Positions 2,674 to 28,279 of a stretch of DNA of 32,000 bases are shown here, in pieces. Under the pieces are notes generated by a model, which saw only the letters and a list, made by a program, of their open reading frames with translations, was not told the DNA's origin and ran no database searches. The DNA is from Erysipelothrix larvae (GTDB lineage: Bacteria > Bacillota_I > Bacilli_A > Erysipelotrichales > Erysipelotrichaceae). Position numbers and translations under genes: made by a program. The stretch is taken from contig NZ_CP013213.1 in NCBI RefSeq assembly GCF_001545095.1, positions 150,001-182,000 of the forward strand, given 5' to 3'. Numbering within the stretch: the stretch's first letter is position 1; each line of letters starts with the position of its first letter.

Positions 2674-3515
2674 TCAAATTAATTAAAAATGGATTCATCG
2701 ATTCATGGCAAAGTTTTAGAAATGTTATTGTTGCGATACTCGTTGCATTCACACTTCTTACATTGATGTCATTTACCGGTGAAAGTACAGCTTCTGTATT
2801 CTTTGTATCCGCAGCAATGCTTGCAATGTTTGCACTGATTGTTGCAGCGTTTGTAATGTCAATCATGGCATTCATTCGATTATTATATAAATCACTCTAT
2901 CGTGAAGAATCTTATCGTGCGTTTACACAACCGGTTGCTTCATGGGAAATCTTTGTAAGCAAAATAGTTGTCGCAATTTTATGGACTATTCTAATCTCTG
3001 TTGTGGCAAGTGTTGCATCACTCATTTCGATGTCTATTATGTTTAGGGACCTCAGTGAAGTGTTTGCGGTCGTGAAGGATCTATTCAGTTATGTTCTGTC
3101 ATACATTGATTGGTCACTCTTCTTAGTGTGGGGTGTTGAGTCATTGGTATCTACGATCTTTACATGCTCATTATTCTTAATGGTAGGTGCGATTGTGAAT
3201 TCAAGTCGTTTCCAAAATAGACGTGTAATGTGGTTTGTTATTATTTACTTGTTAATTGTCTTTGCTTTTGGACAACTAATTGGAAATTTTGATACATCAA
3301 CGATTGTGGCACAACTCGATCCAGGTTTCTACCAAAATATTGAGAACACTGCAATTTCTGGTGTCGTTAACTGGGCGGATTTATTCACGATTGCGGTTAA
3401 CCAAGCAGGAGTTCAGACACTATTGTTATTAACATTCCTAAAAGCTCTGTTAGCAGGATTTATGGGATTCGCAACAGTTTGGCTTTGGGATCATAAGCTT
3501 GAAGTCATAGACTAA
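2667..3515 (+). CDS. Multi-pass membrane protein, putative permease partner of the preceding ABC ATPase
   Basis: The 282-aa protein has about 6 hydrophobic segments. Its ATG overlaps the ATPase stop (ATGGTAA), indicating translational coupling. I recognised no specific family motif. Confidence 0.6.
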   Translation: MVIKLIKNGFIDSWQSFRNVIVAILVAFTLLTLMSFTGESTASVFFVSAAMLAMFALIVAAFVMSIMAFIRLLYKSLYREESYRAFTQPVASWEIFVSKIVVAILWTILISVVASVASLISMSIMFRDLSEVFAVVKDLFSYVLSYIDWSLFLVWGVESLVSTIFTCSLFLMVGAIVNSSRFQNRRVMWFVIIYLLIVFAFGQLIGNFDTSTIVAQLDPGFYQNIENTAISGVVNWADLFTIAVNQAGVQTLLLLTFLKALLAGFMGFATVWLWDHKLEVID

Positions 3516-13367: not shown

Positions 13368-14255
13368 CTATCGAACATAGAGTGTCAGTGTAAATGTAAT
13401 TTCATCATTACTTTGATGTGCTGAAAGCGCCATATCCATCGATTTTGCTAACTCATAAGCAATAGAGAGGCCAAGACCGCTTGAGGCGTTGGATCTATCT
13501 TTGCTATTACGGTATGTGCGATCAAAGATTCGGTTTAGATCAAGAGATTCAGAGGCTCCTTTATTTACAAATGAGATATTAAGCGTGCGTTCTGAAGTTC
13601 TTATCGTGGAAATCGAGAAATATTGACTCCCATGATTTAATGCGTTCTTAATAAGATTACTGATAATACGATTGAATGCTGCAACATCAAAGTCGCCTGT
13701 GATGGCATCGTCACCGATATTGATTTCAATGGACTCGAAGTGTTGATTTAAGGAATCATAATAAAGTGCGAGGTTTTCTTGCAGTATCCGATTTGGATTC
13801 TGTGGCTCAATCGACAGTGGGAATTCATCAGAGCTGAGCTGACTGAGCATATAAAAGTCTTCAACATGGTTGTTTAATACTTTAATACGTTTTTCTACGA
13901 GGCTGAGTCGTTCTTTGTCTTTGTCTGATAAATTACTGTCTTGGACTATTTGAATATAACCAAGCATGGATGTAAGGGGAGTTCTGAAATCATGTGCGAT
14001 TGATGTCGTCATTTGCTGTAGTTGTTGCAGCATCCGATCGTTGTATTGTATCAAGTCATAATATTCTGATAAAAGATTATTCAGTTCATAAACAAGGTTG
14101 TTTAGGGATGGTTCATTATCCATAATTTGAATCGGTGAAAGTGTCTTGAAATTTCGCGATACATTGATCTGCTTTGCAAGACCTCTTATTTCATGTGAAA
14201 GGATTATGTAAACAAGAATACCACCAATCAATAATCCGATAATGAACAAAATCAT
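13368..14255 (-). CDS. Sensor histidine kinase with one N-terminal TM helix and no extracytoplasmic domain
   Basis: The H-box is SIAHDFRTPLTSMLGY, the N-box is ISNLIKNALNH and the G-box is GLGLSIAYELA. The only hydrophobic segment is MILFIIGLLIGGILVYIIL. Confidence 0.85.
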   Translation of the reverse strand: MILFIIGLLIGGILVYIILSHEIRGLAKQINVSRNFKTLSPIQIMDNEPSLNNLVYELNNLLSEYYDLIQYNDRMLQQLQQMTTSIAHDFRTPLTSMLGYIQIVQDSNLSDKDKERLSLVEKRIKVLNNHVEDFYMLSQLSSDEFPLSIEPQNPNRILQENLALYYDSLNQHFESIEINIGDDAITGDFDVAAFNRIISNLIKNALNHGSQYFSISTIRTSERTLNISFVNKGASESLDLNRIFDRTYRNSKDRSNASSGLGLSIAYELAKSMDMALSAHQSNDEITFTLTLYVR

Positions 14256-14265
14256 AAAAACCCTC

Positions 14266-15003
14266 CTAGCTTAGGTCGCTTTGTTTTAAGAAGCAAGTTG
14301 AAAGTGCACTTGAAGTAAGTACAACCAGTAATAGAACTGCAATAAAGAGTGTTGGTGAGACTTCTTGACTTCCAACTCTGATTTGGGCGAGCATTGAACT
14401 CAGGGTAACGGTAGATAATTCTTTAAGTGGCTCAAACAACTCAATAAATCGTGAAAAGAGATAGTTTAGCCACCCAGTTGTGATAAGAATATAGCCAACA
14501 ATACTTAAGGCAGTGTTTTTGAAACGGTAAACAACAACCGATGTGATTGCACTAAAACCAATAATAGAGGCAAAGGTATAGCCACCAATTCTAACAAGCA
14601 TCTGTAAAAGTTTCATATCATAGGGGGAAAATCTTCCACCAAAGAGAAGATATATCCCTATGAAAATAAATCCGTGAATAAGGGCTACAAATCCTGTAAA
14701 GAGCGTCATCACGATGAGTTTTGAACTCACAACTGTTGCGTGTGATTTTCCAGTGCTCACAAGATTCCCCAATGTATTTGCTTTGAAATCATCACAATAT
14801 ACTGCCGAAAATGCATGTGCACTGATGATAAGGGAAACAAATTGAAGCGCATTGATTCCTTCAAGAAGTATTTGCTCTCCACTTTCAAATGTCGAAAGGA
14901 CAACGGTCACAAAGAGAAATAAGCCAATCCAAACACCATAGTATATTTTCGTTGATCGTTTATGTGACAGACGATAAAGTTCTGCATGAATTGTTTGAAT
15001 CAC
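14266..15003 (-). CDS. ABC-2 type permease (LanE/LanG- or BcrB-like), copy 2
   Basis: The 245-aa protein has six hydrophobic segments. The N-terminus IHAELYRLSHKRSTKIYYGVW is paralogous to the upstream permease (IKAELYRLARKRSTYIYYGVL). Confidence 0.75.
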   Translation of the reverse strand: MIQTIHAELYRLSHKRSTKIYYGVWIGLFLFVTVVLSTFESGEQILLEGINALQFVSLIISAHAFSAVYCDDFKANTLGNLVSTGKSHATVVSSKLIVMTLFTGFVALIHGFIFIGIYLLFGGRFSPYDMKLLQMLVRIGGYTFASIIGFSAITSVVVYRFKNTALSIVGYILITTGWLNYLFSRFIELFEPLKELSTVTLSSMLAQIRVGSQEVSPTLFIAVLLLVVLTSSALSTCFLKQSDLS

Positions 15004-15015
15004 AACCGGCCTCCT

Positions 15016-15759
15016 TTAAACAGAAATTTCCTTTTTGTTGAAGAGGAATGTTGATATTGAGATGGATACCAAGACGTAGGCTGCCATGATTCCAAAGAAT
15101 TGAACATTAAGACTAAGATCAGGTCCAGATCCCATAAGATTCATAATTTGCTCTGTAATTGAAAATTGCATTGCTTCATCCAAAAACGGAATGATATTTC
15201 TTACCATATTCAAGATATTGTAAACAAAACCTAAGTTAAAGAAGAGATAGAGTGCAACACTGATCGTTGAGGATTGAAACTGTAGCAAGACAATTGAAGA
15301 TAGGGTTGCATAGGCAACAGAACTTGCAATGACACACACCAAGAATTTTAACAACCCTTGAACCAGTATAAGTTGGGTTCCTTCAAAACTACCACCATAG
15401 TAAACATATAGCCCACCATACACTAAGACAAGTCCGATAAAGACTGTAACAGTATGAATTACAAATAGGAGTACTTTTGATAGGATGAGTGCAGTGCGCG
15501 ATAAACCTGTACTAATTGTGTTGGCATATGTTTTTGATGCGATATCATCACAGTATACTGCTAAGAATACTTGAGTTGTTACAAAGAGTGAAACGACTTG
15601 GACCAATCCAAATCCGAGTTCAAGGAAGAAAGTTGGGGAATCAACATTAACTAAAAGTAGCATGATGCCCACAAATGCAGCAACCAAGACACCGTAGTAA
15701 ATATAGGTGGAACGTTTGCGAGCGAGTCGATAGAGTTCAGCTTTAATGTATTGAAGCAT
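15016..15759 (-). CDS. ABC-2 type permease (LanE/LanG- or BcrB-like), copy 1
   Basis: The likely start ATG 15759 (MLQYIKAELYRL...) lies 7 nt after GGAGGA and overlaps the ATPase 3' end. It has six hydrophobic segments. Confidence 0.75.
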   Translation of the reverse strand: MLQYIKAELYRLARKRSTYIYYGVLVAAFVGIMLLLVNVDSPTFFLELGFGLVQVVSLFVTTQVFLAVYCDDIASKTYANTISTGLSRTALILSKVLLFVIHTVTVFIGLVLVYGGLYVYYGGSFEGTQLILVQGLLKFLVCVIASSVAYATLSSIVLLQFQSSTISVALYLFFNLGFVYNILNMVRNIIPFLDEAMQFSITEQIMNLMGSGPDLSLNVQFFGIMAAYVLVSISISTFLFNKKEISV

Positions 15760-16666
15760 CGCTTGGTCCTCCAATCAGATTAAGGAAGTAGTCTTCGAGA
15801 CTGGCTTCATTGGTCGAAATTTGATACAGTGTGATTCCATTGCTCACCATTAAGTTGTTAATAATATTTGGTTCGTGAACATAATCATTAAGAATGATTG
15901 TTTTATCATCAAAGACACGGAAATTGGTTGTATTTGCTTCTTCTTCAAGGAGTATAGAAGCTTTCGCAACATTATCGACGACAATCTTCAAAGAACTGCG
16001 GGTTCTCTCATGGAGTTCTTGAGCTGTAATTTCTTCAATAAGTTTTCCTTTTTCAATAAATCCAAAACGAGTTGCCATTAATCCGAGTTCACCTAAAATG
16101 TGGGATGAAACAACGAATGTGATACCAATTTCTTTATTGAGGTGTTGAATGAGTTTCCTAAAGTCAGCAATCCCTTGTGGATCAAGTCCATTAACGGGTT
16201 CGTCCAGAATAATCACCTTAGGCGATCCCATCAACGCATTCGCAATTCCAAGTCTTTGCTTCATACCCATTGAGTAGGATTTAAAGGGTTTTTTCACCCC
16301 TGCCAAATCAACAAGCTTTAAGACACGATCAATTTCTGTTTTATCTTGAATCCCTTTGAGAAGTCTAAAGTAGTTGAGATTATCATAGGCATTCAAATAG
16401 GAGAAGAAGCTAGGCCCGTTCATGAATCCAATATTGTGTCTTCCAACGCGAAGCCCTGAATCGGATGGATCACCAAACAATGCGATATCCCCATTTGTTG
16501 GTTGTGTGAGTCCCATTAAAAGTTTAAAGAGTGTTGACTTACCGGCACCATTTCGACCGATAAGACCGTAGATGTCACCAAATTCAAGGGATAGTGAGAC
16601 GTTGTTTACCGCTGCATAATCACCATAATTTTTCGTGAGATTGTGTGTTTTTATAACTGTTGTCAT
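15743..16666 (-). CDS. ABC transporter ATP-binding protein (ABC-2/BcrA/LanF-like, with C-terminal extension)
   Basis: Walker A is GRNGAGKST, the signature is YSMGMKQRLGIANAL and Walker B is VIILDEPVNGLDP. The 307-aa length includes an extra C-terminal domain of about 80 aa. Confidence 0.9.
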   Translation of the reverse strand: MTTVIKTHNLTKNYGDYAAVNNVSLSLEFGDIYGLIGRNGAGKSTLFKLLMGLTQPTNGDIALFGDPSDSGLRVGRHNIGFMNGPSFFSYLNAYDNLNYFRLLKGIQDKTEIDRVLKLVDLAGVKKPFKSYSMGMKQRLGIANALMGSPKVIILDEPVNGLDPQGIADFRKLIQHLNKEIGITFVVSSHILGELGLMATRFGFIEKGKLIEEITAQELHERTRSSLKIVVDNVAKASILLEEEANTTNFRVFDDKTIILNDYVHEPNIINNLMVSNGITLYQISTNEASLEDYFLNLIGGPSDASIH

Positions 16667-16693
16667 AATATGTCACCTTTCTTTCATGGGAAA

Positions 16694-16748
16694 AGTATAG
16701 CAATGAAAGTTTAAATTCATTGTAAGTAAGTCTTAAATAAGTCTTAAA
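16694..16748 (-). promoter_or_regulatory. Internal promoter with tandem 11-bp direct repeat, a candidate response-regulator binding site
   Basis: The minus strand reads TTTAAGACTTA TTTAAGACTTA (16748-16727), then 27 nt, then TATACT (16699-16694). About 20 nt further on is the AAAGGTGA RBS and the ATPase ATG. No good -35 is present, as expected for an activator-dependent promoter. Confidence 0.5.
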
Positions 16749-17412
16749 TCGATAATTTATAGCCTAAACCCCAAATTGTGTCGATTGATATTTTCGCATT
16801 ATGGTCTGCAAGTGTTTTTCGAAGGCGTGAGATATGAACGGACAAGGTATTATCGTCACCATAATAGGTGTCCTCCCATATCTGTTCGTAGAGTGTTGCT
16901 TTTGTGAAGACACGATTAGGGGCACGCATCATGAAAACAAGAAGTTCTTGTTCTTTGAGCGTGAGTGTCAAAGGCGCATCATCACAAAAAAATGTACGGG
17001 ATGCTTCATGATAAGTGACATTATTAACACGAATTACTTCTGGTAAGACTTCTTTGGGTGAACGTTTTCGTAGTTGAACTTGAACGCGGGCTAAGACTTC
17101 CCGATTATCAAAAGGTTTAGTAATATAATCATCTGCTCCAAGTTCTAGAAGGTTTACACGATTTGAGACATCCGAGAGCGCGGATATGATAATGAAAGGG
17201 GATGTTGTTAAAAGGCGTGCCTGTTGAATTACTTCAGCTCCAGAAAGGCCGGGGAGCATTAAGTCCAAGAGCACACAATCAAAAGAATCAGATTCTATAA
17301 GACGCAGTGCTTCAGTGCCTGAGTAGGCTTGGGTTATCGTGTAGTGTGGTGAAAGTAATTCAAAGAGCAATTGGTTTATTTCATTATCATCTTCTACGAT
17401 TAGGATGTTCAT
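16744..17412 (-). CDS. OmpR/PhoB-family response regulator
   Basis: The receiver domain is ILIVEDDNEI...DCVLLDLMLPGLSG...KPF. The C-terminal winged-helix is LTLKEQELLVFMMRAPNRVFTKATLYEQIW...TLSVHISRLRKTL...IDTIWGLGYKL. Confidence 0.9.
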   Translation of the reverse strand: MNILIVEDDNEINQLLFELLSPHYTITQAYSGTEALRLIESDSFDCVLLDLMLPGLSGAEVIQQARLLTTSPFIIISALSDVSNRVNLLELGADDYITKPFDNREVLARVQVQLRKRSPKEVLPEVIRVNNVTYHEASRTFFCDDAPLTLTLKEQELLVFMMRAPNRVFTKATLYEQIWEDTYYGDDNTLSVHISRLRKTLADHNAKISIDTIWGLGYKLSI

Positions 17413-17542: not shown

Positions 17543-17830
17543 TTGATTCATATCGCTTTATCAAGATGTGTGACTATGGAGTGAACTACCCGCCACTAAG
17601 CATACGCTCGAAGTGGGGGCTTCTTGAGAACAAAGCAAACTTAATCGACATTCCTGTCGACCAGCGGTCACTTTTATTTATCAAGCTATCCCCGATGTCC
17701 CATCGGTTTATTGTTTTTCATTCTTAGGATTGATGCGAAAGTCTTAATCCTTCATTCAGGATATTGATGCTTGCATTCAAATCACGATCGTGTGTGATGT
17801 TGCAGTTGGAACATTCCCATTGACGTATCT
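17543..17830 (-). ncRNA. Candidate omega-RNA (TnpB guide RNA scaffold) spanning the tnpB 3' end and right end; extent approximate
   Basis: The roughly 130-180 nt after the tnpB stop is conspicuously GC-rich and structured compared with its AT-rich flanks. Hairpins are CCGATG-GGA-CATCGG (17692-17706), TCGACA-GGAA-TGTCGA (17645-17660) and CTC-GAAG-CCCCCA-CTTC-GAG (17607-17628). The position matches where omega-RNAs are encoded in IS605 elements. Confidence 0.45.
17607..17628 (-). repeat. Right-end subterminal hairpin of the IS element
   Basis: The plus strand reads CTCGAAGTGGGGGCTTCTTGAG. The stem is GAAG/CTTC with an outer CTC/GAG, followed by TTG as at the left end. Confidence 0.55.
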
Positions 17831-18857
17831 CCATTGGTTTCTTTCCATCATTATGTCCACAGTGAGAACACAGTTGACTGGACGGATACCAGGAATCAAT
17901 CTTGATTACTTTTTTCCCATACCAATCGGCTTTGTATTCGAGCTTTGCCACAAATTGTGACCACGACACATCTGCAATACTCTTTGAAACCCGCTTCGTC
18001 TTCATCATTTCTTTAACTTTTAAGGTTTCTATACAGAGCACATCATGGTTCTCGATTAGCTCCTTACTCACCTTGTTTAAGAAATCATTGCGTCGATTTG
18101 CGATCTTCTCATGGATTCGTGCGACTTTTAACTTTTGCTTTTGGTAATTCTTGGCTTCACTCAGCGGGACACCCCGTTTCTTTGCCTCCCTTTTACGTTT
18201 TGATAACTTACGTTGTTCTCGTTTCAGTGTTTGTGCTTCTTGGTTCGTGAATCGTGGGTTTGGAATCTGTGTTCCATCAGAGAGCACCGCAAAAGCAATC
18301 AATCCAAGATCAATCCCAACCTCAGACCCCGTCTTAGGTAGGTGCTCGATTGTTTCTTCGACTAAGAGTGAGACGTGATAGATTCCTGTTGTACTCCTTG
18401 ATATCGTTGCGGATTTAATATCACCTTTTGGGTGACGATGCATCTTGATTCTTACAAGACTCTTAAGTTTTGGCAGTTTAAGGTATTTATGATCTTTAAT
18501 GGATATTGTTCCTTTTTGATTGTTTGTGGTATAGGACTGCTCCATTTTTCTTGATTTATACTTTGGCTCACCTACCTTTGGATCTCGATAACAATTCTTA
18601 AATGCTCGGTCAAGATTCAATTGTGCATTCGCTAAGGCAAGACTGTCTACTTCCTTCAAATAAGGGTAATCTTCCTTATACTTTGCAGGTGTTGGAATTT
18701 TATCGTTTGTTGGAAGTCCGTTTCGATAATCCTCATTCATTTGAAGCCGCTCTTCAAGCATGAGGTTATACGTCTTACGAACACAACCAAACGTTTTTGC
18801 GAAAAAGATGATTTGCTCTTGGTTTGGATAAATTCTAAACCTGTAGGCACGTTTCAT
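17724..18857 (-). CDS. tnpB: TnpB (IS605 OrfB) RNA-guided endonuclease family protein, apparently intact
   Basis: The N-terminus MKRAYRFRIYPNQEQ is typical of OrfB. The RuvC-like acidic residues lie in GIDLGL, CIETLKV and HDRDLNASINI. The zinc ribbon is CSHCGH...CSNCN. Length is 377 aa. Confidence 0.92.
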   Translation of the reverse strand: MKRAYRFRIYPNQEQIIFFAKTFGCVRKTYNLMLEERLQMNEDYRNGLPTNDKIPTPAKYKEDYPYLKEVDSLALANAQLNLDRAFKNCYRDPKVGEPKYKSRKMEQSYTTNNQKGTISIKDHKYLKLPKLKSLVRIKMHRHPKGDIKSATISRSTTGIYHVSLLVEETIEHLPKTGSEVGIDLGLIAFAVLSDGTQIPNPRFTNQEAQTLKREQRKLSKRKREAKKRGVPLSEAKNYQKQKLKVARIHEKIANRRNDFLNKVSKELIENHDVLCIETLKVKEMMKTKRVSKSIADVSWSQFVAKLEYKADWYGKKVIKIDSWYPSSQLCSHCGHNDGKKPMEIRQWECSNCNITHDRDLNASINILNEGLRLSHQS

Positions 18858-19258
18858 CGCTTTTCCCCCTGTGTCTCAATATACTGTTTCAACACTTCTA
18901 GAGGAGCACCACCAACAGAAATAAAGCAGAAACTCTTTGAGCAAAAAGCATCTTTCCAAAGGGATGCTTTCACTTTTGGAAATTCTTTCTTAATCAAGCG
19001 ACTGCTTGCACTTTTGTAAGCATTGATAAACTTGCTAAGTGGTGTATTTGGATGGGCTTTGAATAGAATATGAACATGGTCAACATCATGATTCCATTCA
19101 ATACAGGTGATATTGTAGTTTGGAGCAATGGAAACAAAGATTTCATGAGCCCGTTTCGAAATTGAATCGTTGATGACTTTTCTGCGATATTTTGTGACAA
19201 AAACCATATGATATGTCAATAAAAACACAGAATGAGCATTATTGTCTAAAACCTGCAT
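18854..19258 (-). CDS. tnpA: IS200/IS605 Y1 (HUH) transposase TnpA
   Basis: Start at ATG 19258 (MQVLDNNAHSVFLLTYHMVFVTKYRRKV), 8 nt after GGGGAG, whereas the ORF-track start 19267 is GTG. The HUH motif is in DHVHILF and the catalytic Tyr is in LKQYIETQ. The stop TGA overlaps the tnpB ATG. Confidence 0.92.
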   Translation of the reverse strand: MQVLDNNAHSVFLLTYHMVFVTKYRRKVINDSISKRAHEIFVSIAPNYNITCIEWNHDVDHVHILFKAHPNTPLSKFINAYKSASSRLIKKEFPKVKASLWKDAFCSKSFCFISVGGAPLEVLKQYIETQGEKR

Positions 19259-19341
19259 ATTATGCACTCCCCTTACATTTCTACTGACTATATTATATCA
19301 TGATTTAAGGGTTAAAGACAGCCAATTCATCCCCCACTTAT

Positions 19342-19358
19342 AGAAGTCGGAGACTTCT
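19342..19358 (-). repeat. Left-end subterminal hairpin of the IS element
   Basis: The plus strand reads AGAAGTC-GGA-GACTTCT followed by TG, the same GAAG...CTTC-TTG design and orientation as at the right end. The adjacent CCCCCACTT (19331-19339) is the inverted complement of AAGTGGGGG (17611-17619). Confidence 0.55.
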
Positions 19359-19580
19359 TGGCATTTCTGTTAAATATCGTTTGAGCCTGTATAGAATCCC
19401 GGACTCATCCTATATATTATTAACTTATCAAACGTAATGTTGATAAAAAAGAGGAGCAAATAAAAATAATAGCGGTTTTAAGGTGAACTTATAAAAGAAT
19501 TAAGGGGTTAGGAAATCGATTATCCGGTGATTTTGGTTGATATTTTAGTGTATAATGAATGCAAGAGAAGTAAAGCAAAG

Positions 19581-20183
19581 ATGAAAATTGTATTAGTTAG
19601 ACATGGTTATACTGTTGGAAATGATTTAGGGCTCTATACAGGATGGTCCAATACATTGTTATCTGAGAAGGGAATTGAGGAGTTGAAAGGATATCGAGAT
19701 GAATATGATTATCCAAAGACAGATCGCTATTATACCTCGGATTTACAACGTACCATTGACACCTTTAAGTTACTCTATGGTGAAGAAACACCAATCACAG
19801 AATCTACATTTGCATTTCGTGAAATTAACTTTGGGGAATACGAAGATGTTCGTTGGGACAAAGTAGCGACACCTTACAACGATAACTATGTTAAGAATCA
19901 ACCCCATGTTCAAGGAGAAACAATTTCTCAAGTAAGCTTAAGATTATTTGGGAAATTAACAGCTGTGTTGTGTGAAATGATTGATAATAATGAAGATTCC
20001 GTGACCATAGTATGTCACTCAGGCGTTATTCGTACCATTCTTATGTTCTTGATGCCTTGCTCATTTGACAATTATTATGATATTGAGACACATAATGGAT
20101 TAGGGTATATTCTAAATATTGATTTTGATGAGAAGAATCATTATATAACATTAAATGATTTTGAAGCAATTCGTAAAAAGTAA
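19581..20183 (+). CDS. Histidine phosphatase (phosphoglycerate-mutase-like) family protein
   Basis: Start at ATG 19581. The N-terminus MKIVLVRHGYTVGN carries the RHG catalytic motif and a second catalytic His lies in VCHSGVIR. The ORF-track N-terminal extension (19527) lacks an RBS. Confidence 0.8.
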   Translation: MKIVLVRHGYTVGNDLGLYTGWSNTLLSEKGIEELKGYRDEYDYPKTDRYYTSDLQRTIDTFKLLYGEETPITESTFAFREINFGEYEDVRWDKVATPYNDNYVKNQPHVQGETISQVSLRLFGKLTAVLCEMIDNNEDSVTIVCHSGVIRTILMFLMPCSFDNYYDIETHNGLGYILNIDFDEKNHYITLNDFEAIRKK

Positions 20184-23641: not shown

Positions 23642-25852
23642 TTAATTATTTTTTGTAGCTTTCTTAAGTGTATGTATATTGATTAAAAACATAATGATAC
23701 CTAAGGCTATTGCTGAACCTTCAACAAATAACGCAGTATTAGTGGTTCCTGATTGTGGGAGTGATGAAACAGGTTTTTGAGTGAACGCATCGGTTGACTT
23801 AGGTGTTTCTGAATTTTGGTGTGGTGTGTCAATTTTAACTTTTGGTGTATTGTCAACTTCAGAACTTGGTGGAATATTTTGATTTCCAGAACTTGGAGGA
23901 GTATTTGTATTTCCAGAAATCGGTGGTGTTTTCTTGACTTCTGTCGTATTATCTGGAGTTGTTTTAGGATCATTATTTGGCGATTTATCTTTATCTTCAA
24001 GTGTAGGAACTTGATTCTCCTTGGTAGGTTCTTCATTATCATTATTTAATGTTTCGTTGAGTTTCCATTGAGCGGTGAAAGTGATAGGGTCAATGATCTC
24101 AAATCCATCTTCTAGCATTCCAGAACTAGGGCTAAGCCAACCAAGGAATGTATATCCATCTCGAATAGGAACAAGATTAGTGTTTAATTTACTTCCTTGG
24201 TCGAGATAAACATTGAAAGAAAGCTTCCCTGTTACATCTGCTTCATCAAGTTTTCTTGATCCGTCGTTTTGACTTGATAGGAGTGTATTAAAGAAGTCAA
24301 CTGCAGATGCATCATAGATGCCTCCATTTGCATCAAAGGTAACTTTTGTGACGAGTACAAATGAGATATCAACATTATTATAAAGATTAGTATAAGGTTG
24401 AGTTACACCAGTGATGTTTTTAATATTCTCACTGTAGATTTCAGTATATAACTTATTGGTTTTTTCATCCTTAACGGTGAAACTCGAGTCGTCTATTTCC
24501 CAGGCAACGCCATTCATACCAATTTTGTTGTTTTCAAAAAGTGCTCCATCAATGTGAATTGAATCTAAACACCCATTTTCTAAGTGGATACCAGCGTCTC
24601 TTAAGGAAAAATTATCGGTAATACTACCACCTTTAATAGTCAGCTCGTTTGTATTATCCACTTTGTTGTGAGCAGCATCAAAGAAAATGCCACCACCCAA
24701 ATCTGCACGGTTTAGGAGTGCTTCATCTTTAGTTGTATAATCAAATGTCGTATTACCTTGGATAGTTGTATTCTCAATAACTGTATTAGTGTTAGTGAAG
24801 ATACCGCCACCACTTCCTGCGTGATTTCCGATGAATGTTGAAGCTTCAATCCATGTTGTTGGAGTATTATTACTACTCGAGAATATAGCGAGCCCTCCTC
24901 CTTGGAATAATTGACTTGGTGTGTAAGTTTTCCCAAAAAAGATATCAGGGTTTGGTATCGTATCTGACTTATTATAGGAGAATGTAGTGTTTGTAATATG
25001 TATTTCTTGGTTGTAATTTGCACCTAGTACAACAACCATTCCTCCCCCACCAGACTGAATCGCTTTATAATAGGGTGTATCAATTGATGCCGCAAACCCA
25101 TATGCTATATTATTGGATAGTGTTGCATCACTTACATCTATAGGGTGAGTATCCTCAAATATATAAACTCCTCCACCTGAGCGGTATGCTGTATTATTGT
25201 TTATGATACCACTGATGTCAACCTTACCTCTATTTATTGAGATTGCCCCCCCTTTATTGGTTGCGACATTTTTCGTGAGTGTAACATCTTTCTCAACAAT
25301 TAATGTACTGTTGTCTCCATCTAGAAAGATGCCCCCGCCTGATCCTGAATAGACCGAAGAAGGGGTGTATCCAGCTTTATTTTCACTAACAACAGCACCA
25401 CTCTCTAAGTGGATGTATGCACCAAGACCTTCAATTGCACCTCCGTGTCCACTGCTATAGTTTTGGCGAAGTGTTGTGTTGTGCTTAATAATTAGCGACC
25501 CAAGAGTATTATTTTTTTCTTGTACTAAGATACCGCCACCTGTTGTATTGCCATCAATTATAATCCCATCAAGTGTGAGTGATGCTCCGTTAACTATAAA
25601 ATGTCTTGATTTTGAAGCAACAATGATGTTCCCCATCTCTGATTGAATCGTAATATCTTTCGTGATTTCAATTGGCTTATCTAAACTGTAGTTTTTATCA
25701 ATTACAAGTGTACCCCCATCTTGAGTCTGACTAACAAGATCTGCCAGAGTTGCTTCCCCAATGGCATGGACAAATGTTGGGCTGAATTCACACCCAATAA
25801 GGAATACTAAGATGAATAAATTCTTAAATATCGTTTTGATTATTTTCCTCAT
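23642..25852 (-). CDS. Cell-surface protein: signal peptide, beta-helix repeats (Pmp-like GGxI motifs), Listeria-Bacteroides type repeat, P/T/N-rich stalk, LPQSG sorting signal
   Basis: The signal peptide is MRKIIKTIFKNLFILVFLIGCEFSPTFVHA. GGAI/GGGI/GGGV motifs recur about every 25-40 aa. The segment VTFDANGG...YTFLGWL resembles Flg_new repeats. The C-terminus is LPQSGT plus a hydrophobic stretch plus KKATKNN. Confidence 0.8.
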   Translation of the reverse strand: MRKIIKTIFKNLFILVFLIGCEFSPTFVHAIGEATLADLVSQTQDGGTLVIDKNYSLDKPIEITKDITIQSEMGNIIVASKSRHFIVNGASLTLDGIIIDGNTTGGGILVQEKNNTLGSLIIKHNTTLRQNYSSGHGGAIEGLGAYIHLESGAVVSENKAGYTPSSVYSGSGGGIFLDGDNSTLIVEKDVTLTKNVATNKGGAISINRGKVDISGIINNNTAYRSGGGVYIFEDTHPIDVSDATLSNNIAYGFAASIDTPYYKAIQSGGGGMVVVLGANYNQEIHITNTTFSYNKSDTIPNPDIFFGKTYTPSQLFQGGGLAIFSSSNNTPTTWIEASTFIGNHAGSGGGIFTNTNTVIENTTIQGNTTFDYTTKDEALLNRADLGGGIFFDAAHNKVDNTNELTIKGGSITDNFSLRDAGIHLENGCLDSIHIDGALFENNKIGMNGVAWEIDDSSFTVKDEKTNKLYTEIYSENIKNITGVTQPYTNLYNNVDISFVLVTKVTFDANGGIYDASAVDFFNTLLSSQNDGSRKLDEADVTGKLSFNVYLDQGSKLNTNLVPIRDGYTFLGWLSPSSGMLEDGFEIIDPITFTAQWKLNETLNNDNEEPTKENQVPTLEDKDKSPNNDPKTTPDNTTEVKKTPPISGNTNTPPSSGNQNIPPSSEVDNTPKVKIDTPHQNSETPKSTDAFTQKPVSSLPQSGTTNTALFVEGSAIALGIIMFLINIHTLKKATKNN
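23849..23929 (-). repeat. Three imperfect 27-nt tandem repeats inside the surface-protein stalk
   Basis: They encode TPPISGNTN / TPPSSGNQN / IPPSSEVDN. The DNA units share the TTCCAGAA(C/A)-T(T/C)GG(A/T)GG cores visible at 23870-23925. Confidence 0.7.
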
Positions 25853-26770: not shown

Positions 26771-26797
26771 TAAAAAAACAAGACCGAAGTCTTGTTT
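26771..26797 (-). terminator. Rho-independent terminator (UUCG tetraloop) of the CofE-like gene
   Basis: The minus strand reads AACAAGAC-TTCG-GTCTTGTT followed by TTTTTTA, and the stem overlaps the stop codon. Confidence 0.85.
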
Positions 26798-27989
26798 ATT
26801 CTGAAGCATAATTATCAAAGTAACCTTGGATGTGGATAACAGGGGTTCCCTTATCTCCAGAACCACTTGTTAAGTCACACAGTGATCCAATGAGGTCTAC
26901 AAGACGACGCGGTGTCGTACCTTGTGCAGCCATGCTTCCAACAAGGTTGTCAGCTTTGCGATGGATTGATTCCATTATCGCATTCCGTAGCGCTTCACCA
27001 GTAAGGTCTTTAAACTCATTATCTGCAAGATATTTAAGCTTGAGTTCGTTTGGTGTTCCTTCAAGGCCTTGTGTGTAACCAGGGGCTACAGTTGGATCTG
27101 CGAGTTCCCAGATTTTACCCATTGGGTCTTTAAAAGCACCATCTCCAAAAATCATTACTTCAATGTGTTTTCCCGTTTCGTCAAGGAAACGTTTTTGAAC
27201 TTGATCAACAAACGAAAACCCATCACGTGGGAAGAGTTTTACGGAATCTTCGGTCGCTTTGTTTGAACCCAAAAGACCGTATGCATCATTATACCCACTG
27301 CCATTTATTGGGGATGACAAAATATCGTCGAGTCCATAAACGGTTTTTGCACCTCCATCAAGGAGTTGTTGTTTAGTACGTGCGCGTGTATGAATATCAC
27401 AAGTGAGCACGTGTTTTGTGTAGTCTAGAATTTTTGTAGCATGATTGCTGAAGATGATTGTTGCTTCACAATCCTCTTTTTCAATAACTTCTTTATAGTA
27501 TGACACATAGTCCATACCTGTAAATGGATGAATCGGAGATCCAAAGTGTTCTTTAAATTGTTCGAGTGTTAGTGTATCGCTGTATGGGTTAATTTTTGCT
27601 TTATCAAGATCTTCAAAAGAAAGTAAAGCATTCCCAACTTCGTCTGATGGATAGCTAAGCATCAACACAATGTGCTTTGATCCGCGTGCAATCCCTTTTA
27701 ACACAGTAGAGAATCGATTTCTTGATAAAATTGGAAATGTAATCCCAACGATTTCATCTTTGAACTTGTTATGTACGTCTTGAGCAATTGCATCAATGCT
27801 TGCATAATTGCCTTGAGCACGTGCAACGATTGATTCAGTGATACAAACAATATCACGATCGCTTATTGTAAATTGACCGCTTTCTTGAGCACTGGTAACA
27901 CTGTCGACTACGATGTCAACAAGGTTGTCACCTTCTTTAATTATTGGGCAGCGAATGCCACGAGAAACTGTTCCTATTTTTCTGTCCAT
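26796..27989 (-). CDS. CofE-like protein (F420-0:gamma-glutamyl ligase fold) with C-terminal extension
   Basis: Start at ATG 27989, 6 nt after GAGGAG (MDRKIGTVSRGIRCPIIKEGDNLVDIVV...DRDIVCITESIVARAQGNY). The N-terminal pattern matches my memory of the F420_ligase/CofE domain as annotated in Firmicutes. Length is 397 aa. Confidence 0.65.
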   Translation of the reverse strand: MDRKIGTVSRGIRCPIIKEGDNLVDIVVDSVTSAQESGQFTISDRDIVCITESIVARAQGNYASIDAIAQDVHNKFKDEIVGITFPILSRNRFSTVLKGIARGSKHIVLMLSYPSDEVGNALLSFEDLDKAKINPYSDTLTLEQFKEHFGSPIHPFTGMDYVSYYKEVIEKEDCEATIIFSNHATKILDYTKHVLTCDIHTRARTKQQLLDGGAKTVYGLDDILSSPINGSGYNDAYGLLGSNKATEDSVKLFPRDGFSFVDQVQKRFLDETGKHIEVMIFGDGAFKDPMGKIWELADPTVAPGYTQGLEGTPNELKLKYLADNEFKDLTGEALRNAIMESIHRKADNLVGSMAAQGTTPRRLVDLIGSLCDLTSGSGDKGTPVIHIQGYFDNYASE

Positions 27990-28009
27990 AATAATCTCCT
28001 CACTGAAAT

Positions 28010-28018
28010 ATTGTACCA
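28010..28018 (-). promoter_or_regulatory. Extended -10 promoter element (TGgTACAAT) for the CofE-like gene
   Basis: The minus strand reads TGGTACAAT about 20 nt upstream of the ATG at 27989. No convincing -35 is present. Confidence 0.45.
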
Positions 28019-28279
28019 CAATCAAGGTGAGAAATTGCTAAGAAATATTGGGTATATTTGTGATTTAGTCCTTTGGTAATATCAAAAGGGGAAGAAGACA
28101 CGTAAAGAGGGGTATATGATATAAATATGCTCCCACCTATAATTTATTCATACAGTTTAGGTGTACCATTAATTTGTGAAAATCTATGACACATAGTAAC
28201 TTTTGAACCCAATAATTCATAATAAACTAAAATAATGCATCGGAAAGGTATAGATAAAAGAATAACTGATCATACTTTA

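Follow-up and report, generated by a model that had tools for sequence, protein, structure and literature searches.

An ISEfa4-like IS200/IS605 element of Erysipelothrix larvae with a covarying RNA scaffold at its right end

Closest described systems

IS200/IS605 elements are among the commonest insertion sequence (IS) families of prokaryotes. The mechanistic paradigm of the family is IS608 of Helicobacter pylori, whose TnpA is a Y1 HUH transposase with a His-x-His motif and a C-terminal tyrosine; the subterminal hairpins of the element are imperfect, with a bulged base, and it inserts 3' of a short specific sequence without duplicating it. The TnpB protein of ISDra2 (Deinococcus radiodurans; PDB 8exa, 8h1j, and 8bf8) is 408 aa long and uses a guide RNA that comes from the element's 3' end. 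The closest named element to the locus described here is ISEfa4 from Enterococcus faecium, which has relatives in Enterococcus cecorum/columbae, Amphibacillus, and Ligilactobacillus. Literature searches on ISEfa4 with TnpB and on E. larvae returned nothing useful.

We analyzed a stretch of 32,000 nucleotides of the E. larvae contig NZ_CP013213.1 (positions 150,001 to 182,000), referred to here as the window. Positions 17581-19368 of the window, on the minus strand, can be assigned with high confidence to one of five E. larvae copies of an autonomous-type IS200/IS605 IS belonging to the ISEfa4-like clade. The gene identities, catalytic motifs, ends, flank hexamer, covarying RNA scaffold, and multi-copy status of the element are all supported directly. 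The locus conforms throughout to the IS200/IS605/OMEGA pattern and adds a new relative to a well-known type of element. It shares with ISEfa4 the order tnpA then tnpB, a left-flank TTTAAC, the right terminus GTAGTTCAC, homologous left-end (LE) and right-end (RE) hairpins, and the same omega-RNA fold, whereas amino acid identity to ISEfa4 is only 62% for TnpB and 65% for TnpA, and nucleotide identity is ~65%. The locus has little import beyond annotation. It raises no new biological question, since the family and its mechanism are established, as is the RNA-guided role of TnpB. For this Erysipelothrix IS, an unnamed member of the ISEfa4 clade, the analysis supplies exact ends, a predicted TAM (TTTAAC), a guide, and an omega-RNA scaffold, which could be of use when TnpBs are mined for compact editors.

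tnpA and tnpB encode a Y1 transposase and a TnpB homolog with intact motifs

An earlier note on this DNA had described a complete IS200/IS605-type element, with tnpA (134 aa) and tnpB (377 aa) overlapping by ATGA on the minus strand. Both open reading frames were confirmed: tnpA occupies 18854..19258, counted from its ATG, and tnpB occupies 17724..18857, with the ATGA overlap at 18854-18857. A ribosome-binding site (AAGGGGAG) is located 8 nt upstream of the tnpA ATG. HMM searches, which the note had proposed, gave family matches for both proteins. TnpA scored above the cutoffs of both Pfam Y1_Tnp (1.1e-39, 135.7 bits; cutoff of 23) and NCBIfam transpos_IS200 (130.6 bits; cutoff of 55), which bears out the assignment of the locus to IS200/IS605, with a transposase of the Y1 HUH type. 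In the alignment with IS608 TnpA (E value of 2e-23), H61-V-H63 falls on the HUH histidines and Y126 on the catalytic tyrosine.

TnpB matched NCBIfam IS200_TnpB (449.4 bits; cutoff of 425) and the Pfam families OrfB_IS605 (6e-28), Cas12f1-like_TNB (1.9e-26, 92.5 bits), and HTH_OrfB_IS605 (1.2e-15). It is identical to WP_067630086.1/AMC92589.1, and its RefSeq label already reads "IS200/IS605 family element RNA-guided endonuclease TnpB." The protein aligns over its full length with the ISDra2 TnpB structures 8exa/8h1j (E value of 8.5e-69) and, at 377 aa compared with 408 aa, stops soon after the last RuvC motif. It carries both the RuvC D-E-D triad and the zinc-ribbon (TNB) insertion: D183 (GIDLG), E277 (CIETLK), and D359 (the second D of HDRD) correspond to ISDra2 D191/E278/D361, and the zinc ribbon comprises C330/C333 (CSHC) and C349/C352 (CSNC). 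At the level of sequence, homology to the solved TnpB and TnpA structures is unambiguous, and on the strength of this homology TnpB is predicted to be a nuclease. The motifs quoted in the earlier note therefore are real and correctly assigned, and its impression that TnpB does not look decayed agrees with the intact triad and the four intact cysteines.

The word "complete" needs qualification, as TnpA carries a W106C substitution at a near-invariant tryptophan. The change, from TGG to TGC with the third codon base at 18941, is private to the window copy; 36 of 37 relatives keep tryptophan at this position, as do all four paralogs and the TnpA proteins of ISDra2 and IS608 (Trp107 in IS608). A literature search on the role of IS608 Trp107 yielded nothing useful. 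Because of this substitution, the window copy is perhaps not self-mobilizing. It is possible, although we do not favor it, that the copy is crippled and nonautonomous, with an inactive TnpA, and owes its persistence to TnpA acting in trans from the four other copies and/or to retention by TnpB. Besides the private nature of W106C, this reading can draw on the tnpA-less derivatives found among the relatives (L013, L017, L018, L020, and L029), in which the LE lies only ~170 nt from tnpB and which show that elements commonly lose tnpA ahead of tnpB. However, the tnpA open reading frame is full length, its HUH motif and catalytic tyrosine are intact, and a single change of conservative size need not abolish activity.

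Ends, flanks, and target site

Set against relatives and same-genome contigs, the element measures 1,788 bp; the span given earlier (17543-19426) had been drawn 38 bp too far out on the right and 58 bp too far out on the left. The right end reads ...GTAGTTCAC, with AGTTCAC as its final 7 nt (17581..17587, minus strand), immediately after which the relatives diverge: all of the ~35 ISEfa4-like loci examined terminate in (G)TAGTTCAC and then differ from the next base. The sole metagenome match to the 21-nt RE terminus (L084) fell in a high-GC coding region that is not an IS and was discarded as a chance hit.

On the left, the hexamer TTTAAC (19369..19374, minus strand) lies outside the element and is the predicted TnpA target site and TnpB TAM. 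It adjoins the LE in 26 of 27 independent insertions of relatives, the remaining one having TTTAAG; it also precedes ISEfa4, and the contig carrying a second E. larvae copy (L083) begins exactly at it. By the family rule, we infer that TTTAAC is flank and not the initial 6 nt of the element. The earlier note had suggested alignment with related strains to find an empty site. The predicted joint of such a site, GATATTTAACTCCATAGTCACAC, had no match in the metagenomes, and the exact junctions, like the placing of TTTAAC in the flank, therefore follow from comparison and the family rule. TTTAAC on the left and TCCATA on the right are not a repeat, so there is no target-site duplication. The arrangement is that expected of insertion 3' of a short specific sequence, with the cut sites themselves predicted. 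The target of IS608 is TTAC and its right end is TCAA, compared with TTTAAC and ...TTCAC here; the TAM of ISDra2 is TTGAT, compared with the predicted TTTAAC. The first five bases of the hexamer equal 5'-TTTAA, the TAM used experimentally with the genome-editing TnpB of ISAam1 from Anoxybacillus amylolyticus (PMC12908284).

The LE (19259..19368, minus strand) contains an imperfect subterminal hairpin and, 5' of tnpA, a promoter-like site identified by a promoter scan (TTAACC-17-TATAGT, 19315-19287). The hairpin (19329-19354; GTCTCC-G-ACTT ctat AAGT-G-GGGGAT, with the clamp GCCAA/TTGGC) has a single-stranded DNA (ssDNA) fold of -8.3 kcal/mol (z of -2.8). The LE lacks an internal segment of ~40 nt found in most relatives. 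At the other end, a subterminal hairpin at 17588..17620 on the minus strand (GCCCCCACT...AGTGG-C-GGGT) doubles as the ssDNA hairpin presumably bound by TnpA and the terminal helix of the omega RNA. The two hairpins resemble each other, and both are homologous to those of ISEfa4, so that the element has imperfect subterminal hairpins at both ends, as is characteristic of IS200/IS605 elements; a bulged base is a further feature that they share with the hairpins of IS608. No terminal inverted repeat spanning the element ends was seen. Our first-guess end hairpins, AGAAGTCtccGACTTCT (LE) and CTCaaGAAG...CTTCGAG (RE), were dropped, as the relatives conserve the CCxACTT/AAGTGGxGG hairpins.

A covarying omega-RNA scaffold abuts the predicted guide

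A covariance model (R1) was built from 18 relatives, with the window left out. R1 matched the window at 17581-17711 on the minus strand (112.2 bits, E value of ~1e-32, model positions 1-149). The scaffold so defined starts 13 nt past the tnpB stop, although the true 5' end of the omega RNA may lie further upstream, inside tnpB. The match stops exactly at the right end, which would place the scaffold next to the guide flank, as predicted for OMEGA. Among 65 distinct sequences, 29 of 42 pairs showed compensatory changes and 96.4% of cells were paired, compared with 29 to 47% in a control with the partners slid; the alignment was fitted to R1, and the pairing counts are somewhat inflated as a result. 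This conserved, covarying scaffold at the right end lends support to the earlier description of an OMEGA-type locus, in which the nuclease activity is that predicted from homology.

The predicted guide segment occupies 17561..17580 on the minus strand (TCCATAGTCACACATCTTGA) and consists of host flank into which the right end is read through; its position, and presumably its length, would follow the family mechanism. The guide of the omega RNA is predicted to be TCCATAGTCACACATC. The guide 16-mer is unique in the window, all other matches having at least 5 mismatches.

The window scaffold scored lower with R1 (112.2 bits) than did ISEfa4 (173.6 bits) or the ISEfa4-like relatives (160 to 186 bits), and its terminal hairpin is without the apical sub-helix of ~17 nt that is present in the ISEfa4-like relatives. 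Many natural TnpBs in published screens have little or no activity. A shortened omega-RNA helix of this kind, or substitutions, could block RNP assembly and leave a motif-intact TnpB that is a dead or weak nuclease in what is only a conventional IS. We regard this as unlikely. The apical segment is the most length-variable part of the RNA, and distant relatives with a 3-nt loop keep the rest of the fold; the other helices of the window RNA are all kept via compensatory changes (CCGAUG/CAUCGG, AAAG/CUUU, and CUUGA/UCAAG). Furthermore, all five TnpB paralogs retain the RuvC triad despite 2 to 4% divergence, and the zinc-ribbon cysteines are kept in the four copies checked (the window copy and P0002-P0004; the paralog P0121 was compared only with P0002). 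A tentative further reading, possible but not favored, is that the E. larvae element is a naturally minimized active system (377-aa TnpB, ~131-nt scaffold without the apical sub-helix of its relatives, and 6-nt TTTAAC TAM). If true, this would make the system a slightly smaller candidate for a TTTAA-type editor. The window copy, with the near-invariant tryptophan of its TnpA lost, might in addition represent a stage at which only TnpB homing keeps a copy after decay of its transposase.

Other RNA matches were set aside. A second R1 match within tnpA (18879-19015, 17.9 bits) was taken as noise of a roughly calibrated model. Rfam gave no match at gathering thresholds. The Enterococcus sRNA Ref70 gave a weak full-length match on the scaffold (22 bits, compared with a gathering score of 115), which did not recur with ISEfa4 or with nine relatives and was dropped as due to chance.

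Proposed transposition cycle

By analogy with the family, TnpA would bind the top strand of the element, which is the minus strand of the window, at its imperfect subterminal hairpins. It would cut on the left 3' of TTTAAC, in the flank, and on the right 3' of the terminal ...AGTTCAC. The excised single-stranded circle then would be reinserted 3' of another TTTAAC, again without target duplication. The empty site left behind is predicted to have the junction ...TTTAAC|TCCATAG..., that is, ...CGATATTTAAC|TCCATAGTCACAC.... Transcription across tnpB and the right end would yield an omega RNA consisting of the scaffold (17711-17581) and a 3' guide of host flank (TCCATAGTCACACATC...). Once it has bound this RNA, TnpB would cut the excision scar TTTAAC|TCCATAGTC..., and recombination with the sister copy would restore the element, a cycle of peel-and-paste with homing.

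The element is present in five copies in the genome

A count of copies, also suggested in the earlier note, gave five tnpA/tnpB pairs in E. larvae, which are 96 to 98% identical at the amino acid level (10 to 14 differences). The pairs are spread over protein accessions AMC92589-AMC94355 of a single E. larvae record (2.495 Mb), and the element thus occurs at multiple sites. The second copy on contig L083 is 98.9% identical in DNA sequence to the window copy. As the copies differ by ~1 to 3%, the last burst of transposition was not very recent. A contig from the same sample (L081) is 100% identical to the window over 4,885 bp and breaks 48 nt inside the right end; together with the start of L083 at TTTAAC, this supports the boundaries of the element. 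A scan of genome contigs returned relatives only, at no more than 64% amino acid identity. Within the window, a scan of the 28 other open reading frames of at least 110 aa revealed no further transposase, and neither the left nor the right end has a second copy, in agreement with the earlier claim that this is the only mobile element there.

Position relative to the response-regulator operon and orientation

The best sigma-70-like site of the neighboring response-regulator gene is TTGAAA-17-TATGAT (17464-17436). It starts 117 bp beyond the right end, within the distance of 80 to 130 bp between element and -35 that had been estimated earlier, and the analysis thus flags an IS 117 bp upstream of the promoter of a two-component/ABC-transporter operon. 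The element conceivably could have been co-opted for host regulation, with read-through or guide-directed binding modulating the response-regulator/ABC-transporter operon in the manner of a TldR-like repressor. tnpB and the omega RNA are codirectional with the operon, the right end is close to the operon -35, and the interval between the two showed no terminator-like site. We nevertheless consider co-option highly improbable: TldRs are nuclease dead, whereas the window TnpB has an intact triad; the element has tnpA and both of its ends; there are five near-identical copies, at different loci; and the guide is local flank, as in any IS copy, with nothing to single this locus out. An ordinary copy of the ISEfa4-like element remains the preferred reading here as well.

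The top strand of the element is the strand of negative GC skew. If the local skew marks the leading strand, the element would have the orientation that reportedly is less favorable for the excision of IS608 and ISDra2.

Genes and family assignment of the element

Both genes of the element lie on the minus strand. tnpA (18854-19258) encodes 134 aa from an ATG behind the ribosome-binding site AAGGGGAG, tnpB (17724-18857) encodes 377 aa, and the two open reading frames (ORFs) share an ATGA overlap. Pfam analysis identified TnpA as Y1_Tnp (1.1e-39) and revealed three domains in TnpB: HTH_OrfB_IS605, OrfB_IS605, and Cas12f1-like_TNB. In NCBIfam, TnpA exceeded the curated cutoff of transpos_IS200, and TnpB scored 449.4 bits against a curated cutoff of 425 for the model "IS200/IS605 family element RNA-guided endonuclease TnpB." Residues 3-371 of TnpB aligned with the ISDra2 TnpB structures 8bf8/8ex9/8exa and 8h1j (E, 8.5e-69); counted along this alignment, D183, E277, and D359 correspond to the ISDra2 RuvC triad D191, E278, and D361. 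The CxxC pairs are C330/C333 and C349/C352. TnpA aligned with the TnpA of IS608 (E, 2e-23) and also with that of ISDra2, which identified H61-V-H63 as the HUH motif and Y126 as the catalytic tyrosine. The earlier note had read these ORFs, their overlap, and the D/E/D, CxxC, HUH, and Tyr motifs correctly, and the family HMM searches (Y1_Tnp and OrfB_IS605) corroborated its assignment. Judged by its sequence, the element has every testable defining feature of the IS200/IS605 and TnpB/OMEGA family.

Ends, flanks, and predicted target site

Alignment with about 25 relatives showed strong conservation downstream of tnpB until ...GCTAAGTGGYGRGTAGTTCAC and complete divergence from the next base; the same right terminus was found in about 35 loci. 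In the window, this terminus reads ...GCTTAGTGGCGGGTAGTTCAC, with its last base at 17581. At the left end (LE; the tnpA side), 27 independent insertions of relatives were compared: TTTAAC directly preceded the conserved sequence in 26 and TTTAAG in one, and the sequence further upstream was unrelated among insertions. TTTAAC occupies 19374-19369 (minus strand) in the window and is followed by AGAAATGCCAAGAAGTC..., an arrangement also seen in ISEfa4. Two contigs of one public run (SRR6161627), both from the same genome, independently supported these boundaries. L081, which carries the response-regulator operon, matched the window at 100% identity along 4885 bp and ended 48 nt inside the right end (RE; the tnpB side), as contigs are expected to do at repeats. 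L083 carries another copy (11 differences over 984 nt), and its first base lies exactly at TTTAAC. Because the boundaries from the relatives and from these contigs agree, we take the element to span 17581-19368 (1788 bp). The limits first drawn, 17543-19426, were too wide, the true ends lying 38 bp and 58 bp further in.

The flanks (TTTAAC on the left and TCCATA on the right) show no duplication. Under the insertion rule of the IS200/IS605 family, TTTAAC is probably the target sequence, with the element inserted 3' of it, and would also serve as the TAM (the motif beside the TnpB target). This prediction fits the 5'-TTTAA TAM used experimentally with ISAam1 TnpB (PMC12908284). The predicted joint of an empty site was searched for in metagenomes and was not found. 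One exact match to the 21-nt RE terminus, at 834-854 of L084, a high-GC metagenome contig, had no IS features around it and was attributed to chance.

Imperfect hairpins, each with one bulged base, were located on the minus strand at 19329-19354 (LE) and 17588-17620 (RE). They are alike, with the core CCxACTT...AAGTGGxGG, and both are homologous to the ISEfa4 hairpins. The predicted left cut site lies 14 to 16 nt ahead of the LE hairpin, according to which base pair is taken as the foot, and the predicted right cut site lies 7 nt past the RE hairpin.

Omega RNA and predicted guide

The stretch between the tnpB stop codon and RE is highly conserved among relatives. For the ISEfa4-like group, RNAalifold gave a 6-bp hairpin (CCGUAG/CUACGG), a long composite helix (CUUGG...CCAAG and AGAG...CUCU, plus an inner variable hairpin), and a terminal hairpin at the same position as the RE DNA hairpin. 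Eighteen relatives, but not the window itself, went into a covariance model, and this model yielded one strong match in the 32-kb window, at 17581-17711 (minus strand; 112.2 bits; E about 1e-32, the model's E-values being rough), which spans model positions 1-149 and stops exactly at RE. A weak second match inside tnpA (18879-19015, minus strand; 17.9 bits; nominal E of 5e-4 on the same rough calibration) was treated as noise. A weak full-length Rfam match to Ref70 (RF02841, an Enterococcus sRNA) coincided with the scaffold (17594-17712, minus strand; 22 bits versus a gathering cutoff of 115); it probably is due to chance, since it was absent from nine Enterococcus-type relatives and from ISEfa4.

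A search of 66 related loci provided 65 distinct matches for alignment. Standard pairs occupied 96.4% of cells, and 29 of 42 pairs showed changes on both sides; because the alignment had been fitted to the model, these counts favour structure, but the margin is still large. No shuffle (0/500) reached any covariation measure, and pairing fell to only 29 to 47% when the 3' partners were slid by 1 to 3 columns. The window differs from the consensus by compensatory changes: CCGAUG/CAUCGG, AAAG/CUUU, CUUGA/UCAAG, and an inner hairpin of its own, UCGACA/UGUCGA. Compared with the ISEfa4-like clade, its terminal helix is shorter: in the apical sub-helix of the hairpin, about 17 nt are missing. This part varies most in length and is a 3-nt loop in more distant relatives.

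If the element works as its family does, the guide, at its predicted length, would be the flank after 17581, TCCATAGTCACACATC(TTGA), which is unique within the window. RE ends in the six bases GTTCAC, two of which differ from TTTAAC, and therefore the occupied site would be expected to escape self-cleavage.

Given the anatomy observed here, the textbook IS200/IS605 mechanism is the best-supported reading. TnpA would excise and insert the top strand via the hairpin ends, TnpB with the element's omega RNA would cut the TTTAAC-flanked scar remaining after excision, and the element would then be restored through recombination.

Copies in the genome and relatives

The window TnpB is identical to AMC92589.1/WP_067630086.1 (Erysipelothrix larvae, 2,495,108-bp record), the latter labelled "IS200/IS605 family element RNA-guided endonuclease TnpB" in RefSeq; systems of this type are very well known, and the existing RefSeq label is correct. 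Four further TnpB proteins in the genome (P0002-P0004 and P0121) are 96 to 98% identical to it (10 to 14 differences). Each is paired with a TnpA of neighbouring accession number, giving five tnpA-tnpB pairs in E. larvae; by accession order, tnpB precedes tnpA in four copies, and the reverse holds in one. The D/E/D triad is present in each of the five TnpB paralogs, and the zinc-ribbon cysteines are present in the four checked (the window copy and P0002-P0004), P0121 having been compared with P0002 only. Divergence among the copies is 1 to 3%, which indicates that they did not spread very recently.

Three substitutions in the window TnpA (E95K, W106C, and L112F) are shared with none of its four paralogs. 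At residue 106, Trp is found in the four paralogs, in the TnpA of 36 of 37 relatives, and in that of IS608 and ISDra2, whereas the window has Cys through a TGG-to-TGC codon change at 18941 (codon 106, minus strand). The earlier description of the element as complete may overstate the state of the transposase, because W106C falls at a near-invariant Trp. TnpA could come in trans for this copy.

Beyond E. larvae, the closest matches were just 62 to 65% identical; among them were proteins of Enterococcus cecorum, E. columbae, Amphibacillus, Ligilactobacillus, and ISEfa4-bearing E. faecium plasmids. Like ISEfa4 and the ISEfa4-like clade, the window element has a TTTAAC flank and the terminus GTAGTTCAC, and it shows the omega-RNA fold of that clade; at this amino acid identity, it is apparently a new and unnamed member of the clade. 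A TnpB annotated in Enterococcus phage EFP01 (P0013) is 65% identical to that of the window; thus, elements of this clade also are found in phage genomes. In five loci from Candidatus Enterococcus ferrettii and E. pallens (L013, L017, L018, L020, and L029; about 2780-3000), only about 170 nt separates tnpB from the conserved LE upstream, too little to hold tnpA. They appear to be non-autonomous members of the same element family that are without tnpA but retain the complete omega-RNA scaffold.

Genomic context

No transposase or integrase was found by Pfam in the 28 other window ORFs of at least 110 aa that were scanned (three that overlapped longer ORFs were skipped), and neither end sequence has a second copy elsewhere in the window, consistent with the earlier view of this as the only mobile element there. 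The element occupies an intergenic region between divergently oriented genes, of which the one on the LE side encodes a histidine phosphatase (19527-20183, plus strand). This ORF is listed from a GTG; MKIVLVRHGYT... begins 17 codons downstream, at an ATG at about 19578 that looks like the real start, which would make the LE-side intergenic region about 50 bp longer. Directly downstream of tnpB, in the same direction, is an operon (13368-17412, minus strand) of an OmpR-type response regulator, an ABC ATPase, two membrane ORFs of about 250 aa with no Pfam match, and a histidine kinase; modules for peptide-antibiotic sensing/efflux have a similar layout. Its best sigma-70-like site (TTGAAA-17-TG-TATGAT, 17464-17436) begins 117 bp beyond RE, within the 80 to 130 bp previously estimated for the response-regulator -35. 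Since no terminator-like site was found between RE and this site, read-through from the IS into the operon is possible.

GC skew of the plus strand was positive in 14 of 15 4-kb windows across 1-32000. The element's top strand is the minus strand and therefore lies on the C-rich strand, which is the leading-strand template if positive skew marks the leading strand. Ton-Hoang and colleagues reportedly found in 2010 that excision of IS608 and ISDra2 is disfavoured in this orientation; a single case proves nothing.

Two other ORFs in the window were noted. A 409-aa ORF (26796-28025, minus strand) matched F420-0:gamma-glutamyl ligase (PF01996, 190 bits), which is unexpected in Erysipelotrichaceae, and a 736-aa ORF (23642-25852, minus strand) contains a Chlamydia PMP-type repeat, which suggests a surface protein.
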